In this document: positions 1 to 8,471 of the stretch, one piece after another
Layout: the number at the start of each line of letters is the position of its first letter
Position numbering within the stretch: the stretch's first letter is position 1
Source: a virus
Taxonomy: Duplodnaviria > Heunggongvirae > Uroviricota > Caudoviricetes
Strand: one strand, 5' to 3'
Length of the DNA stretch: 8,471 nucleotides
Virus record (IMG/VR): IMGVR_UViG_2706794694_000001
Position numbers and translations under genes: made by a program
The notes under the pieces: generated by a model
What the model was told of the DNA's origin: nothing
Database searches by the model: none
The model's input: only the letters and a program-made list of their open reading frames with translations

Positions 1-83
1 AGGGACAGCTGATAGAAACAGAAGCCACTGGAGCACCTCAAAAACACCATCATACACTAAATCAGTAAGTTGGCAGCATCACC
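1..83 (-). mobile_element. IS1 terminal fragment (left end of the element, inverted; continues beyond the window start)
   Basis: Positions 1-83 are the reverse complement of the first 83 nt of IS1 as I recall it; 61-83 (ATCAGTAAGTTGGCAGCATCACC) is the reverse complement of the 23-bp terminal inverted repeat. The insA 5' end (GTG start, V/M-A-S-V-S-I-S-C-P) reads on the minus strand from 28 towards 1. Match is from memory, not a search. Confidence 0.88.
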
Positions 84-1832: not shown

Positions 1833-2615
1833 TTATGCTGCCCTTTTCATTGCGAATGGAACGCGAACAAACACGATCTCTTTATAGCAGCGGCAGTTTG
1901 GCAGCTCGCCCGCGTGGCCGGTCATGCCGTCCAAAGTTGGAGGTGAATCCCAGCGGACGAATTTACCTTTCATGTGATCGTGGGAATCTCGGACATCGCC
2001 ATCATCGGCTGTACGCCAAATATAACCATCCGAGCCAATAGCTATCGCTCGGGCCATATCCAGCGCGCCCGTTGCTCTTCCCAGTTCCGTTCGGGCAATC
2101 AGATCGGCCCTAGACTTAGCAACATCGCCGGTAGATGCAATCTCTTTAGCAAACTGCTCCGCCCGACCACCGGTGACAACAGCCTCTATCGCTTTGTTCT
2201 GGATGTCGTACACCCTGTCTGCGGCCTCGAGAGGCAGAGATTTGATGTACTTGACCTGTTCGGCGATGATGGATTGCATCACCTGGCCCACAGGAGCGCT
2301 TTCCACAAGATTGCGGAGCTCGCGACTGATGTTCTTGCTGTGTTGCCGCCAAACTTTCTCGTTCTGCCGGGTTAGGTCCGCAGTAAAGTTTTCCGCGACC
2401 TTTGTCGCCCAGGGGGTGATGATTTCACTGTAACGCTCCAGCGCCGCAATAATTTCCGTGATACTGTCATTTGAACCATCGTAGCGACCATTTACGATGT
2501 CTCCGACCGCCCTCGCTATCCTGCGTAGGCTGGTTCGATACCGGATTTCCGCCTGACGGCTCCTGCGGTTCGTCATCAGGTTCGCCGATGCCGGGCGGCG
2601 CTTCATCTTCGGCAT
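1833..2615 (-). CDS. phage head morphogenesis protein, Mu F-like / SPP1 gp7 family (minor head protein)
   Basis: 260-aa ORF whose C-terminus carries the PNCRC-type motif of this family (…HAGELPNCRCYKEIVFV). GAGGA lies about 10 nt before the ATG at 2615. The start overlaps the portal 3' end by 149 nt, so the true start is uncertain. TAA stop. Confidence 0.8.
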   Translation of the reverse strand: MPKMKRRPASANLMTNRRSRQAEIRYRTSLRRIARAVGDIVNGRYDGSNDSITEIIAALERYSEIITPWATKVAENFTADLTRQNEKVWRQHSKNISRELRNLVESAPVGQVMQSIIAEQVKYIKSLPLEAADRVYDIQNKAIEAVVTGGRAEQFAKEIASTGDVAKSRADLIARTELGRATGALDMARAIAIGSDGYIWRTADDGDVRDSHDHMKGKFVRWDSPPTLDGMTGHAGELPNCRCYKEIVFVRVPFAMKRAA

Positions 2616-3549
2616 TCTCGATGTCCTCGTCGGTAATGGATGCCCCGATGCCGGTTACGTCAGAATTTTCTCGCAAATCAGTCATAGCGGCTTTCAGTGT
2701 CATCAGACCATCACCCAGCGCCGTACTGATTGCGTTGGTGGTGTTTAACGCCACCGTTGAGCGATCGACATCAGACATTTGCCAGAGCGGGTTAAACTCA
2801 AACGTGAAATCGTCCGGCAGCGGCTTGCCAAGTTCCGAACGATGCATGATGTCCAGTATCCGCCGCACCGGAAGACGTAAACGCCTCTCCTGCAACGAAC
2901 TGATGCGATCGTAATAGTTGGCAAGGTCTGCATCACCGGTAGAAAATCCTTTCGGGGACTGTCCGAACAACCGCACCAGTGGGATACCAACAGCGCCACT
3001 AATCTGTTCTACAAACTGCGAAAGGATGTCATCCAGACCACTGAAGCTGTACTGATGGGTTTCAAACTTATCCCGCGAGTCCATGAGCGTCATGCCTTCA
3101 TTACTCTGGAACTGTCGAATCAGGTCGATATTCTTCAGCAACGCTTCATACGCAGGACCACCAAGTGCGATAAGCTCGCGTAGCTTCTCCACGCTGTAGG
3201 TACGCAAATGCGCCTTGTAGACCAGCTGCGCCGCGCCGACAGTAGCGCTGTCGAACGCGGTAAGACGATCCCAGATACGCTCTACAACCGACATTCCCCA
3301 TTCGTTCTCGGTCATCTTCTGCTGAAATGGCAACGTGACGCCATCAAAGCGAATCAGGCGACTGTGATGAATGCGCCAGGCAGGAATTCCCGTTGCTGTG
3401 GTCACCACATCGTAAAACTCAGGTTTACCCAGGTCCGGCCCCATATCTTTAATGCGGCGGGTCAGTGCCGGGTCGACCATCCAGCGGTCGAGCGGGAGAA
3501 TCCCCTTAAACTTGCCCTTACCGATGGTTTCGGGTCGCAGCGGGGTCAT
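2467..3549 (-). CDS. phage portal protein, largest uninterrupted ORF (C-terminal 360 codons of the portal reading frame)
   Basis: ORF sits right after terL in a terS-terL-portal-morphogenesis order, has an acidic C-terminal tail typical of portals, and ends in TGA. The same frame continues upstream to 3933 but carries two TAG codons (see the pseudogene feature). Confidence 0.75.
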   Translation of the reverse strand: MTPLRPETIGKGKFKGILPLDRWMVDPALTRRIKDMGPDLGKPEFYDVVTTATGIPAWRIHHSRLIRFDGVTLPFQQKMTENEWGMSVVERIWDRLTAFDSATVGAAQLVYKAHLRTYSVEKLRELIALGGPAYEALLKNIDLIRQFQSNEGMTLMDSRDKFETHQYSFSGLDDILSQFVEQISGAVGIPLVRLFGQSPKGFSTGDADLANYYDRISSLQERRLRLPVRRILDIMHRSELGKPLPDDFTFEFNPLWQMSDVDRSTVALNTTNAISTALGDGLMTLKAAMTDLRENSDVTGIGASITDEDIENAEDEAPPGIGEPDDEPQEPSGGNPVSNQPTQDSEGGRRHRKWSLRWFK

Positions 3550-3933
3550 TGGTGCCTACCCCTCAATCATGATGAAACCCACCGCGCCGCCGTAGAGGCG
3601 CGACCATTTCAGCACGTCATTCAGCGCATCCCAGATTTGCAACTCATCCAGTTGTGATTCGAGAATGCCACGATCTTTTGCATCAATTTCCGAAGTGATG
3701 CGAATGCCTTTGCGGGTCATATCATCCGGGATAGCATCGACTGCTTCGCCGATGATCTAGGATGAACGATAGGACCATTCCACCAGCATGCGGTTACGAC
3801 TGGTGAAATTAGCCCGGTAGGTGGATGCTGAGTGCTGGTTAGGTGTCTGCATCCCTACGCGGGCAATAAAATTCTCATAACCATCAGCTGTGGCCTGCAC
3901 AGTTCGCCGCAGGGCTTGTTTGTTTCGTGCCAT
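2467..3933 (-). pseudogene. full-length portal reading frame (~489 codons) interrupted by two in-frame amber (TAG) codons
   Basis: An ATG at 3933-3931 overlaps the terL stop as ATGA. 3933-3549 = 384 = 128x3, so it is in frame with the 360-aa ORF. Translation MARNKQALRRTVQATADGYENFIARVGMQTPNQHSASTYRANFTSRNRMLVEWSYRSS*IIGEAVDAIPDDMTRKGIRITSEIDAKDRGILESQLDELQIWDALNDVLKWSRLYGGAVGFIMIEG*APMTPL…; the stops are plus-strand CTA at 3757-3759 and 3556-3558. No frameshifts. Confidence 0.7.
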
Positions 3934-5336
3934 CAGGCCTGTCTCCCCAGCTGTTCCCAGATATCCAGCGATGTATCGATTGGCGCGAAGGCCATAATGA
4001 ATGCATCAGCAACGTTTGGTGACGGTATCTCGCGTTTTGCGAGGTCTTTTTTACTTTCGACCATCACACGTCCGTTACGGTCGAAATCACGATGAGGTGT
4101 TGTCAGTTCCAGTTTCAGCTTTTCAAGCAACGGACAACGAGAATCTATGCTGATCAGCTCATCCACAGGATACTGTTCTCCGTTGTTAATGGCGTTAAAC
4201 GTATTTCTGAAACGGTCAGCCACCAGCCACCATGCCTGAGCCTTAAGATTTGCGAAAAAGTCTTTGTTGGGGATGCCGTTGTACTCGTCATCTGGCTCAT
4301 GCACACCAGCACCGGCGTTAAACCTCTGGTAATTCACACGTCGCGCGTATGCGTTCTCGCTCTTCCGGTCAGCGTTAATTTCAGAGAATTTAGCACCGGC
4401 AGACGCACCAACACCGATAGAGTCGTAAACAATATCTGCTTCACGCTCCAGCGCCGCCTGATAAGTACGCTGGCAGCTCTTCAGTAATTCATCTTCTTTG
4501 GCCTTCCATTCGTCGGCCCAGAAAACAACGGATCCGTGACGGTAAACGTTAGCGCACTTATCTGTACCACTGTCAGCCACGTCAAAGCCAATACGCTTTC
4601 TTCCACTGGGTTCGAAATTTAACGTTTTGTGCGCATCCACTGCGGCTTCTATCCAAGACAGTTTGATGATTGCCGCATCATCATCAGACTCCGGAACGCC
4701 CTCATACACATGTTTAAAACCATCCGGATCACGGCGTCGCGCCGCGTCGATAACCTTAAGCATGGTGTCAGACAGAAACGGATTTTCGTCATAGTTAATT
4801 TTGCGGATGAGAGTGCCTTCGGGCGGATCAACAACGAAGTTGCGCCAGACGAAATCAGTAACAAGTCCGGGGTTGAATATGAACCAGCATTCCGAACCCT
4901 CTTTACGGATCGTTGGCTCCAGAATTTTCCACTGGTATTCCGTCAGTGCGTGGGCTTCTTCCAGCCACAACACATCGATCCCCTCCAGTGACTTAATTTC
5001 TTCGATGTTGCGCCATAATCCATAAAAAACAAATTCCGAGCCAGTAACCCGGTTAATGATTTTGTTGTTCAGAATACGGAAACGGTGCCGCAGACCAAAC
5101 CTGTCTATCTGAATTTTGAGCAGGGTATACACCGACTCTTCGATTTTATTCTGGATCTGACGGGCACAACAAAAACGCAGGGTGTATTTATTCGACAGAA
5201 ATATGGCAATGCCAGCGGCATCCCATGATTTTGACGATGACCGACCACCATAAAGCACTTTGTTACGTGCCCGCATAGTCCAGAAACTACGTAAAGCCGG
5301 ATTCAGCGTCGGTTTGGATGTCAGAGTAGAAGTCAT
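3933..5336 (-). CDS. terL: terminase large subunit (PBSX / Terminase_3-type ATPase-nuclease)
   Basis: N-terminal motif TLNPALRSFW…ARNKVLYGGRSSSKSW (Walker A) and a WLEEAH-type Walker B region. TGA stop at 3933-3935 overlaps the portal ATG. Start is ambiguous: the ORF is open to 5444 but the upstream part reads as out-of-frame terS sequence; ATG at 5336 chosen (alternatives 5354 and 5363). Confidence 0.85.
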   Translation of the reverse strand: MTSTLTSKPTLNPALRSFWTMRARNKVLYGGRSSSKSWDAAGIAIFLSNKYTLRFCCARQIQNKIEESVYTLLKIQIDRFGLRHRFRILNNKIINRVTGSEFVFYGLWRNIEEIKSLEGIDVLWLEEAHALTEYQWKILEPTIRKEGSECWFIFNPGLVTDFVWRNFVVDPPEGTLIRKINYDENPFLSDTMLKVIDAARRRDPDGFKHVYEGVPESDDDAAIIKLSWIEAAVDAHKTLNFEPSGRKRIGFDVADSGTDKCANVYRHGSVVFWADEWKAKEDELLKSCQRTYQAALEREADIVYDSIGVGASAGAKFSEINADRKSENAYARRVNYQRFNAGAGVHEPDDEYNGIPNKDFFANLKAQAWWLVADRFRNTFNAINNGEQYPVDELISIDSRCPLLEKLKLELTTPHRDFDRNGRVMVESKKDLAKREIPSPNVADAFIMAFAPIDTSLDIWEQLGRQA

Positions 5337-6051
5337 TGAGGTCACGCTCTCCATTGCCATCATCAATACCTGCATCACGGCGAAGACGATCAGCCTCCAG
5401 AGACACCTTATCAGTGGCGGCCTTGCGGTAGGCTGTATCAGCAAATATTTTTCCTACCGTCGCAAGCGTGCCAACGATGGACTCAATACGAACTGTATTG
5501 CGCATCATTGCTTTCTCGGCGGCGCTGATATTTTCAATCAGCATCTTCCTTTCCTGGTCCCCATTAGCATCTTCCAGCGACACCAACCACCGACCAATAT
5601 TCTCTGCAGCGACAAGGTTGTTAGCACGAAGGCGAAATAATTCGTCCTCGAGCGTCAACGCTTTAGCGTCCTCTATCACCTCATCTTTGAGCAGAAGGCG
5701 ACGGGCATAACCACCGTGTTTTAATGCCTGCTGGTTACCGGGTTGGAATGGGTTAGTCGGGGGATCGGTACGCATTCCGCGTATCGGTTTCGTATCCGGT
5801 GTAGATTCTGTTTTTAGTTGCGTACTTTTTTGTGTAAGGCCAGTAATGGCAGGCTTTCTGCTGGTACGCACTTTCCTTTTTTGCGTACCATTTTTGCAAA
5901 CCTGCGTACCGCCACTGCGTGCCCAACCAAGCTTTTTGGCCCTCTTCCTGATAGCCCCTTCTGTAACGCCGTATTTCTCGCCTATATCACGGAGGCTAAG
6001 GACTCCGGCCCGGTATGCCGATTCGATGGCCTCCCAGTCCGGTTTTGCCAT
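5287..6051 (-). CDS. terS: terminase small subunit (N-terminal helix-turn-helix DNA-binding domain)
   Basis: 254-aa ORF directly upstream of terL. N-terminus MAKPDWEAIESAYRAGVLSLRDIGEKYGVTEGAIRKRAKKLGW is a typical terminase-small-subunit HTH. AGGAAG Shine-Dalgarno 7 nt before the ATG at 6051; TAG stop at 5287-5289. Confidence 0.8.
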   Translation of the reverse strand: MAKPDWEAIESAYRAGVLSLRDIGEKYGVTEGAIRKRAKKLGWARSGGTQVCKNGTQKRKVRTSRKPAITGLTQKSTQLKTESTPDTKPIRGMRTDPPTNPFQPGNQQALKHGGYARRLLLKDEVIEDAKALTLEDELFRLRANNLVAAENIGRWLVSLEDANGDQERKMLIENISAAEKAMMRNTVRIESIVGTLATVGKIFADTAYRKAATDKVSLEADRLRRDAGIDDGNGERDLNDFYSDIQTDAESGFT

Positions 6052-6846: not shown

Positions 6847-7317
6847 CTACCCCCCAAGGCATTGGATCCTGATGTACTCCTGAAGCATTCTCAATGCTGT
6901 CTGGTCGCTGATGATTCCGTCCCGGATACCGAGAACGTTTCGTCCAGCAACTGGAGAGAGTTCGACGGTGGCATCATTGCCCATGCCGGAGGCGCTGGAG
7001 GTTTCGGCTGAGGATGGCACAGGGCATTTTCCTTTGACGAGCACCCGACCACCATTATCAAGCTTGCGCCGAAGAGCATCATTTTCAGCTTTCGCATCAG
7101 CTAACTCCTTCGTGTATTTTGCATCGAGCGCAGCAACATCACGCTGACGCATCTGCATGTCAGTAATGGTTGCGTTCGCCAGCTTCAGTTCTCTTGCGTT
7201 TTTGTCGCGCTGCTCTTTGTAGGTAATGGCGTTATCACGGTAATGATTAACAGCCCATGACAGGCGGACGATGATGCAGATAACCAGAGCGGAGATAATC
7301 GCGGTGACTCTGCTCAT
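6847..7317 (-). CDS. Rz: Rz-family i-spanin (inner-membrane spanin subunit), copy 1, non-lambda C-terminal allele
   Basis: [17 protein letters not shown]…[13 protein letters not shown]…[27 protein letters not shown] is near-identical to lambda Rz in the N-terminal half, with a divergent but homologous C-terminal half. Start taken as ATG 7317-7315, preceded by a 42-nt copy of the endolysin 3' end in ATGA arrangement (the ORF is open from GTG 7329). TAG stop. Confidence 0.85.
6891..7097 (-). CDS. Rz1: Rz1-family o-spanin lipoprotein, copy 1, embedded in Rz in another frame
   Basis: 68-aa ORF nested inside Rz copy 1 in the +1 frame: [19 protein letters not shown] (signal peptide with lipobox VVGC) followed by proline-rich [11 protein letters not shown], the hallmark of embedded Rz1. 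Confidence 0.7.
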
Positions 7318-7369
7318 TGCTGCCCCCACAAACAGACTTCACGCTCAATCTCACGACGGGTCATCAGCC
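7081..7369. repeat. direct repeat copy A of the Rz N-terminal region plus endolysin 3' end (289 bp); the partner is 7530-7921
   Basis: 7081-7146 is identical to 7530-7595 (offset 449) and 7267-7369 is identical to 7819-7921 (offset 552). Identity breaks at 7080/7529 and 7370/7922. Confidence 0.9.
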
Positions 7370-7869
7370 GCTCTCTGAGGGTGAAATAATCCCGTTCAGC
7401 GGTGTCTGCCAGTCGGGGGCTGGTTGCATTATCCACGCCGGAGGCGGTGGTGGCTTCACGCACTGACTGACAGACTGCTTTGATGTGCAACCGACGACGA
7501 CCAGCGGCAACATCAGCGCGCAGAGTTTCATTTTCAGCTTTCGCATCAGCTAACTCCTTCGTGTATTTTGCATCGAGCGCAGCAACATCACGCTGNNNNN
7601 NNNNNNNNNNNNNNNNNNNNNNNNNNNNNNNNNNNNNNNNNNNNNNNNNNNNNNNNNNNNNNNNNNNNNNNNNNNNNNNNNNNNNNNNNNNNNNNNNNNN
7701 NNNNNNNNNNNNNNNNNNNNNNNNNNNNNNNNNNNNNNNNNNNNNNNNNNNNNNNNNNNNNNNNNNNNNNNNNNNNNNNNNNNNNNNNNNNNNNNNNNNN
7801 NNNNNNNNNNNNNNNNNNGACGATGATGCAGATAACCAGAGCGGAGATAATCGCGGTGACTCTGCTCAT
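7314..7869 (-). CDS. Rz: Rz-family i-spanin, copy 2, lambda-type allele; interrupted by the N-run and C-terminally truncated/fused to a duplicated endolysin 3' fragment (probably non-functional as it stands)
   Basis: ATG at 7869-7867 overlaps the endolysin TGA (ATGA); [17 protein letters not shown] then runs into the N-run. After the gap: …[77 protein letters not shown], then reads into [16 protein letters not shown] (the endolysin C-terminal sequence) instead of the lambda Rz tail. Frame continuity across the gap cannot be verified. Confidence 0.55.
7364..7546 (-). CDS. Rz1: Rz1-family o-spanin lipoprotein, copy 2, lambda-type, intact 60 aa
   Basis: [60 protein letters not shown] is near-identical to lambda Rz1 as recalled: lipobox VVGC, PPPPP stretch, embedded in the Rz copy 2 frame. 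Confidence 0.75.
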   Translation of the reverse strand: MRKLKMKLCALMLPLVVVGCTSKQSVSQCVKPPPPPAWIMQPAPDWQTPLNGIISPSESG

Positions 7870-7921
7870 TGCTGCCCCCACAAACAGACTTCACGCTCAA
7901 TCTCACGACGGGTCATCAGCC
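7530..7921. repeat. direct repeat copy B (contains the 223-nt N-run); the partner is 7081-7369
   Basis: See copy A; the flanks on both sides of the N-run match copy A exactly. Confidence 0.9.
7596..7818. other. assembly gap (223 N)
   Basis: Contiguous run of n characters. Its length is not a multiple of 3 and is 103 nt longer than the equivalent interval in repeat copy A, so it is a placeholder of uncertain size. Confidence 0.97.
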
Positions 7922-8363
7922 CTTTCCATTGCTTACCGCCAGCATATGTCCAGCGACATAGCTGGTCACATGCGCCTTTGATATAGCCCTGGTTTATTTT
8001 GCGAAGAAGCGTCGATGTTCTGAAATTGCCAGCGCCCACGTTGTAAACGAACGAGTAAAGAGCGCCGCGCGTTGTTTCCGGTATATCGACTTTGATGTAC
8101 GGGTTAATTTGTCTGGCGACAGTGGCAAGGTCTTTATTCAGGAGAGCTTTGCATTCTGCTTCGGTATACGTTTTACCAGGCATGATGTCTTTTCCGGTGT
8201 GTCCGTGACATACAGTCCATACACCAATGATATCTTTGTATAGTATGTAGCTGACACCTTCCAGACCATCGTTACCACCTGGGCCAGTGATTAACACAGA
8301 TGCTATAGCAACAGCCCCGCCACCAATAGCAACTGCAACAGCCTTGCGTAATGATGGCGACAT
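7866..8363 (-). CDS. R: SAR endolysin (P21 R-like lysozyme with N-terminal signal-arrest-release domain)
   Basis: 165-aa ORF near-identical to the recalled P21/DLP12-type lysozyme: G/A-rich weakly hydrophobic N-terminus [23 protein letters not shown] (SAR domain), catalytic E35/D44/T50 spacing of T4-lysozyme-like enzymes, C-terminal …[27 protein letters not shown] Shine-Dalgarno before the ATG at 8363; TGA stop overlaps the Rz start. Confidence 0.92.
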
Positions 8364-8385
8364 TATTCACCTCTCGCAGCCTTAC
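8363..8385 (-). pseudogene. S: 3' remnant of a P21-type pinholin (S) gene: last six codons KAARGE plus TAA stop, cut by IS2
   Basis: The minus-strand frame ending in TAA that overlaps the endolysin ATG (TAATG) reads …K-A-A-R-G-E-stop, matching the recalled C-terminus of pinholin S21 (…RRKAARGE). Upstream the frame runs straight into the IS2 terminal sequence and is closed by stops. Confidence 0.6.
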
Positions 8386-8471
8386 TAGACTGGCCCCCTG
8401 AATCTCCAGACAACCAGTATCACTTAAATAAGTGATAGTCTTAATACTAGTTTTTAGACTAGTCATTGGAG
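8386..8471 (+). mobile_element. IS2 left end (terminal inverted repeat and leader; continues beyond the window end)
   Basis: 8386-8471 (TAGACTGGCCCCCTGAATCTCCAGACAACCAGTATCACTTAAATAAGTGATAGTCTTAATACTAGTTTTTAGACTAGTCATTGGAG) matches the recalled IS2 left end, with one possible mismatch (CAACCAGTATC here versus CAACCAATATC as recalled). The transposase orfA start would lie just past the window. Match is from memory. Confidence 0.88.

Follow-up and report, generated by a model that had tools for sequence, protein, structure and literature searches.

The window, that is, the whole stretch of 8,471 nucleotides that was analysed, carries its genes on the minus strand, apart from that of a DedA/VTT membrane protein, which lies on the plus strand (Table 1). 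Read from its right end, it has a lysozyme gene (R), the spanin genes Rz and Rz1, the DedA/VTT gene, an open reading frame in the position of a small terminase gene (no Pfam match was obtained for it), a PBSX/Terminase_3 large terminase gene and a DUF1073/Phage_portal_3 portal gene. A Mu-F-like head morphogenesis gene, a DUF2213 gene and a gp24-like gene lie to the left of the portal gene, and just past the last of them the head module is cut by a terminus of IS1. On the right, the window terminates inside IS2, 86 bp into the element, and the start of orfA lies beyond 8471. The window is thus a draft-assembly contig breaking in collapsed IS repeats at both ends. The position of the DedA/VTT gene, between Rz and the terminase genes and on the opposite strand, is moron-like.

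Table 1. Coordinates of the features of the window, from left to right (L003, locus of E. coli VL40; L004-L013, loci of ten complete chromosomes with the IS2 junction; L022, second prophage of FDAARGOS_944)
Feature	Position	Strand	Basis or remark
IS1 terminus	1-83	.	83/83 to the IS1A copy at L003 2025-2107 (VL40)
Portal pseudogene (DUF1073 / Phage_portal_3)	2467-3933	-	Pfam; comparison with the intact VL40 gene
DedA-family / VTT-domain membrane protein gene, 170 aa	6246-6758	+	Kept in E. coli relatives (WP_011069285.1 in VL40)
Rz i-spanin, complete, 156 aa (ATG at 7317)	6847-7317	-	Pfam Phage_lysis (PF03245), E=6e-32
Rz1 o-spanin ORF embedded in Rz	6891-7097	-	Pfam Rz1 (PF06085), E=4e-21
Extra lambda/rzpD-type Rz middle and 3' fragment	7360-7595	-	98.3% to L022 1501-1736
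Run of 223 N (gap or mask) in the first Rz copy	7596-7818	.	120 bases normal between the landmarks (L022 1737-1856)
R 3' end and first 51 nt of Rz (ATG 7869-7867)	7819-7921	-	103 bp, repeated at 7267-7369
SAR endolysin R, 165 aa, intact, R21/RrrD type	7866-8363	-	Pfam and PDB matches
P21-type (class II) pinholin 3' remnant	8363-8385	-	Direct reading; identical to the 3' end of the VL40 holin gene
Target-site duplication GTAAG (CTTAC on the plus strand), one copy	8381-8385	-	Both flanks in L004-L013
IS2 left end (IRL), first 86 bp	8386-8471	+	86/86 to L008 5893-5978

The product of R matched Pfam Phage_lysozyme (PF00959) with E=1e-43 and was aligned over residues 1-165 with PDB entries 4zpu (RrrD) and 3hde (phage 21 R), with E about 1e-103. 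The catalytic motif E35-X8-D44-X5-T50, the triad of GH24 lysozymes, was present. The N-terminus was weakly hydrophobic and rich in Gly and Ala, with residues 8-26 aligned to the SAR domain of R21 and RrrD, and the near-identity to R21 suggests that membrane tethering of R would be Sec-dependent and its release dependent on the proton motive force. Downstream of R, the complete Rz, which is the copy collinear with the VL40 and Shigella sonnei loci, contains an Rz1 lipoprotein ORF in the +1 frame, the arrangement of a two-component spanin.

The flagged junction lies directly upstream of R. By direct reading, the plus strand from 8360 to 8400 is acattattcacctctcgcagccttac followed by tagactggccccctgaatctcc, and the break falls between ...cgacattattcacctctcgcagccttac and tagactggccccctgaatctccagacaacc... 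The sequence-only reading had placed an IS2 terminus at 8386, which was exact: positions 8386-8471 were identical, at all of the 86 bases, to the terminus of a 1,331-bp element in ten complete chromosomes, and at 85 of 86 to an IS3-family element by essD in E. coli 1517k. A near-perfect match over 86 bases, with the break exactly at the IS terminus, excludes simple chance. Position 8415 (IRL, ...CAACCAGTATC...) is a G, as in the S. sonnei copies, and is different in the copy of E. coli 1517k; this is consistent with the reported IS2 variants shared among Shigella and distinct from those of E. coli chromosomes (PMC7373316).

The end of IS2 facing R is IRL, 22 nt upstream of the start codon of the SAR endolysin. 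The genes orfA/orfAB read rightwards on the plus strand, away from R, so that the start codons of R and orfA diverge and are 113 nt apart. The minus strand from 8385 to 8361 reads GT AAG GCT GCG AGA GGT GAA TAA TG, and the remnant accordingly consists of two bases of codon R65, the codons of K66, A, A, R, G and E71, and TAA. The TAA (8365-8363) overlaps the start ATG of R (8363-8361) as TAATG. Coordinates and translation were therefore those given by the sequence-only reading, which had described 22 nt encoding KAARGE and a stop codon in this overlapping arrangement. A good Shine-Dalgarno sequence for R, GAGAGGTGA, is kept within the 22 nt. When the remnant and R were aligned to intact holin-R cassettes, the alignment began exactly at 8385 (L003 5185).

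The same junction was located in finished genomes by an exact-protein look-up of R, which led to ten distinct places (L004-L013) in complete chromosomes of 4.8-5.0 Mb. HE616528.1 and CP014099 are among them, and for these 2 of 10 the strain names were taken from the literature, S. sonnei 53G and S. sonnei FDAARGOS_90, respectively (PMC5447701). Window positions 7819-8471 were matched at 653 of 653 bases in nine of the ten chromosomes. The copy in L008 occupies 4648-5978, is 1,331 bp long and runs from IRR to IRL as TGGATTTGCCCC...GGGGCCAGTCTA; its characteristic imperfect terminal inverted repeats (IRL TAGACTGGCCCC..., IRR ...GGGGCAAATCCA) were detected computationally, and over its full length it was 99.5% identical to elements annotated as 'IS3-like element IS2 family transposase'. 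It contains the two overlapping ORFs of IS2, orfA (5522-5887, minus strand; Pfam match to HTH_Tnp_1) and orfB (4659-5564, minus strand; Pfam matches to HTH_21, rve and rve_3), which correspond to the HTH and the DDE/rve products, respectively; in IS2, a frameshift between two such ORFs yields the OrfAB transposase.

Beyond the element, holin codons 1-66 (ATG TAT CAG ATG GAA AAA ...AAG CGT AAG) directly abut IRR. GTAAG was found on both sides of IS2 in all of L004-L013 and once in the intact holin gene of VL40 (L003 5185-5189), and when the two flanks of IS2 were aligned to this uninterrupted gene, they overlapped by exactly these five bases. The codon of K66 is part of the duplication and is for this reason present on both sides of IS2. 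The far end of IS2, the 5-bp target duplication and the 5' portion of the holin gene, all of which had been proposed as checks, were hence recovered, and the sequence from 8386 onwards continues as a complete IS2. The comparison with intact P21-like cassettes, also proposed, was made with E. coli VL40 (L003) and CFSAN029787 (L002); both were 99.5% identical to the window over R, and the window departs from them only at the IS2 terminus. FDAARGOS_944 carries a further uninterrupted holin-R-Rz cassette. The intact holin genes are distinguished by lacking IS2, and an intact holin ORF with the identical sequence, which would have spoken against a disruption, was not encountered among them. The event was a simple transposition of IS2 after codon 66 of the 71 codons of the holin gene, with duplication of the target GTAAG. 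For the source strain of the window, the full element, the duplication on the far side and the 5' part of the holin gene are inferred from the identical junctions of the other genomes.

A junction-spanning query matched none of 5,426 complete E. coli genomes, and the scan of the GTDB species-representative genomes with a 39-mer across the junction gave no match; Shigella is presumably folded into the E. coli species in that representative set. The lack of the junction in the complete E. coli genomes fits an origin within the S. sonnei lineage. The top two-piece matches (strain 1517k and others), which resemble IS2 near essD, were rejected, because there an IS3-family element lies beyond an intact essD and represents a different event. 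The exact R protein was found in 852 indexed blocks, in 690 of which the longest contig was 5-10 kb, as fits the same IS-bounded fragment recurring in many draft assemblies.

The interrupted gene encodes a pinholin. The intact VL40 holin (L003 4992-5207; 71 aa, MKSMDK...KIREDKRKAARGE) matched Pfam PF04971, 'Bacteriophage P21 holin S', with E=2.6e-35, and the 5' fragment together with its tail still matched the same profile with E=1.7e-34 over positions 1-62 of 64. The sequence features of a pinholin were found: a dual start, two transmembrane segments (in the family, TMD1 is SAR-like and TMD2 pore-forming) and a position overlapping a SAR endolysin gene. The statement that the holin was split by IS2 is upheld as to the split itself and is to be qualified as to its extent, for the break comes after codon 66 and both transmembrane segments are kept. 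The upstream fragment retains the dual-start motif M1-Y-Q-M4 and both predicted transmembrane segments, and its hydrophobic profile is that of the intact protein up to residue 66. Just the last five residues are lost, and a tail of 28 residues encoded by the IS is gained, as the frame reads into IRR for 28 codons (…KIREDKRK-WICPYISRHLLSLNPLQARCRRYSRGER); the net charge of the tail is thereby raised from +3 to +8 in the fusion of the holin fragment and IS2. By analogy with its family, the intact protein would form small depolarising holes that release the SAR endolysin; the fusion ORF has 94 aa and a tail that is more basic. Gene callers annotate the fragment as a 'Phage_holin_2_1' ORF of 91 or 111 aa. 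The 22-nt remnant and the upstream 'holin' ORFs of 91-111 aa in S. sonnei are two halves of one pinholin gene disrupted by IS2.

Further upstream, the S. sonnei 53G-type order is a Q-like gene, a tRNA, IS911, about 550 bp ending in a terminator hairpin, the holin fragment, IS2 and R. The Q-like gene (DUF1133 with a weak match to Phage_antitermQ) lies within 4 kb in L008 and L012. In the remaining chromosomes the Q region was not found within 6 kb, and most of them have an IS110-family element whose end lies 10 nt 5' of the start codon of the holin gene; L013 has an additional IS3-family element inserted inside the IRR of IS2. IS elements thus cluster in a hotspot 5' of the holin fragment (L008 2393-4647; L004 3017-4440; L013 3381-4660), and IS911 in 53G sits right after the tRNA, downstream of the Q-like gene. 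The hairpin is strong and terminator-like (L008 4379-4405, plus strand; GGCCATCAG...CTGATGGCC with a T-run); it lies about 45 nt 5' of the holin start, is followed by a G10 run and could represent the late operon's tR'-type terminator.

This diversity bears on the possibility that IS2 marks the endpoint of a rearrangement in the source strain, in which the 5' part of the holin gene and the late control region would have been lost or moved by an IS2-mediated deletion or inversion. The far side of IS2 is unseen, as the window ends within the element, and the varied architecture upstream of the holin fragment among the ten chromosomes points to active IS-driven rearrangement at the locus. However, in ten of ten places the holin 5' fragment and GTAAG are kept directly across IS2, and the visible side of the window is 100% identical to the places in the complete chromosomes, which makes such an endpoint improbable, although it is the best of the alternatives to a simple insertion.

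With regard to expression, the sequence-only reading had proposed that the late promoter would lie beyond the IS and that the endolysin, spanins and downstream terminase and head genes are cut off from it. As a matter of topology this is right, as the Q-like gene, IS911 and the hairpin are all 5' of the holin fragment and IS2. Between the Q/pR' late control region and the genes behind the insertion, namely R, Rz/Rz1 and those for packaging and the head, there would be 1.3 kb of IS2, read antisense, and in the complete chromosomes IS911 or the IS110-family element would widen the separation. Q-modified RNA polymerase can read through terminators. From the order of the elements on the DNA, the cassette behind IS2 is most likely transcriptionally silent.

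The suggestion that transcription could enter R from IS2, outward or through a hybrid promoter, fared less well. The weak promoter of IS2 itself, P_IRL, is located just inside IRL and reads inward, and it is the outward -35 element in IRR that makes the minicircle promoter Pjunc and hybrid promoters at ampC, acrEF and neo (PMC3299598, PMC9330008); for ampC, the activation was described by Jaurin and Normark 1983, as cited in PMC9330008. At this locus, IRR is turned towards the holin fragment and is antisense to it. The scan of IS2 and the junction with the promoter consensus gave no site directed towards R, and promoter-like sites in the region were 3, as compared with 4.4 expected from shuffled sequences. 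At lower stringency, one R-directed sigma-70-like site, TTAAGA-17-GATACT, appeared in IRL (8444-8416 of the window), with 8 of 12 consensus bases, below the threshold of the scan. An outward or hybrid promoter of IS2 was accordingly rejected as the likely mechanism, given that IRL is the end proximal to R and that the scans were negative, and IS2-driven transcription of R is unlikely.

The remark that, for a SAR endolysin without its pinholin, membrane depolarisation alone could release active lysozyme was correct in principle: the tethered form of SAR endolysins is inactive, and a low rate of spontaneous release without a holin has been reported (PMC9239132). On this basis a functional junction can be conceived: the weak site in IRL, acting outward, or read-through would give constitutive low expression of R and the spanins, and hence an autolysis module that is independent of the pinholin and sensitive to the proton motive force, with the fusion possibly serving as a retimed pinholin. 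If this were true, a collapse of the proton motive force would set off autolysis of S. sonnei, with the release of colicins or some other cargo as one conceivable use. Intact R, Rz and Rz1 genes and the preserved Shine-Dalgarno sequence agree with such a module. Against it stand the orientation of the IS2 promoter elements and the low score and expected number of the sites given above, the decay of neighbouring genes, seen in the nonsense mutations of the portal gene, and the fact that intact lysis genes are expected here without selection. S. sonnei is a young clone whose chromosomes have a median count of 286 IS insertions, IS1, IS2 and IS911 among them (PMC7373316), and at this age the intact R, Rz and Rz1 need no selective explanation. 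The functional junction is consequently held to be very improbable, and more so than the rearrangement endpoint.

A second anomaly of the window was found between R and the collinear Rz. The 103-bp segment that includes the R 3' end occurs twice, with the landmark GACGATGATGCAGATAACC at 7267 and 7819, an offset of 552. Between the copies lies the extra Rz fragment, which was 98.3% identical to the second FDAARGOS_944 prophage and 94.5% to rzpD of L001, and which contains a complete lambda-type Rz1 ORF (7364-7546; Pfam Rz1, E=6e-20). It meets the second R 3' end between 7369 and 7370, within a 10-bp microhomology, GTCATCAGCC. The arrangement was absent from the ten complete chromosomes carrying the junction; among the 5,426 E. 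coli genomes no one-piece match to it was obtained and only the normal gene order was found; and the look-up of the lambda-type Rz1 returned ordinary lambdoid prophages only. All seven mismatches between the window and the complete S. sonnei chromosomes cluster at 7120-7152, 33 bp of the collinear Rz, where the window has the bases of the lambda-type copy (7563-7595); the clustering and this match together indicate repeat mixing or gene conversion. The Rz segment, the 223 Ns and the 103-bp repeat are probably an artefact of scaffolding or gap filling in which the Rz copies of two prophages were mixed, and a real microhomology-mediated insertion with gene conversion at Rz is less likely.

The anomaly at Rz is separate from the IS2 junction, which it leaves untouched. 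The idea that the junction itself is an assembly chimera, an IS2 read end misjoined to the R contig, draws on this probable artefact 500 bp away in the same window and was rejected as having almost no chance of being right, for the identical junction, together with the opposite junction and the target duplication, is present in ten independently finished chromosomes.

The reading that is left, with a probability of about 0.93, is ordinary IS-mediated decay: in a lambdoid prophage remnant of S. sonnei, IS2 was inserted into the pinholin gene at its 3' end. The prophage is defective irrespective of IS2, as the portal gene contains two in-frame nonsense mutations relative to VL40, W59* (base 3758) and Q126* (base 3558), the head module is truncated by IS1 and other IS elements are inserted 5' of the holin gene. 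The portal sequence is identical in S. sonnei 53G. IS2 would thus be one among several inactivating lesions of a dead prophage and would have no function of its own. The exact locus is already contained in published reference genomes and is not a new system; in the literature, no paper discussing this particular insertion was found. Its main value is in correct annotation, namely that the lysis, packaging and head genes behind IS2 belong to a dead prophage, and it illustrates how IS copies fragment Shigella draft assemblies.

Among known systems, the module is closest in plan to S21-R21-Rz/Rz1 of phage 21 and to essD-rrrD-rzpD/rzoD of DLP12, a cryptic prophage of E. coli. The gene order is the same, with TAATG and ATGA overlaps, the holin belongs to PF04971 with the dual start M-x-x-M, R matches 3hde and 4zpu, and Rz and Rz1 belong to the same Pfam families. 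In contrast to both, IS2 breaks the holin gene after its codon 66, the collinear Rz is a variant other than that of lambda and the cassette precedes a head module with PBSX-type terminase and DUF1073 portal; from RrrD of DLP12, R differs by about ten substitutions. In the phage collection, no close relative of the whole module was found, and the best match had 51% coverage and 94.5% identity. The element resembles classic IS2 insertions in its length, its ends (IRR TGGATTTGCCCC..., IRL ...GGGGCCAGTCTA), its orfA/orfB and its 5-bp duplication. It differs from the cases of activation by IS2: there, the activated gene lies on the side of IRR with its outward -35, but at this locus R borders on IRL and the transposase genes are read away from R, which makes the known mechanism of activation inapplicable. 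The closest parallel as a process is the IS-driven degradation of Shigella genomes (Hawkey et al. 2020, PMC7373316), with which the locus shares the clustering of IS1, IS2, IS911 and IS110-family elements in and around one prophage, the pseudogenes and the draft contigs that break at IS copies, and from which it differs in nothing substantive.
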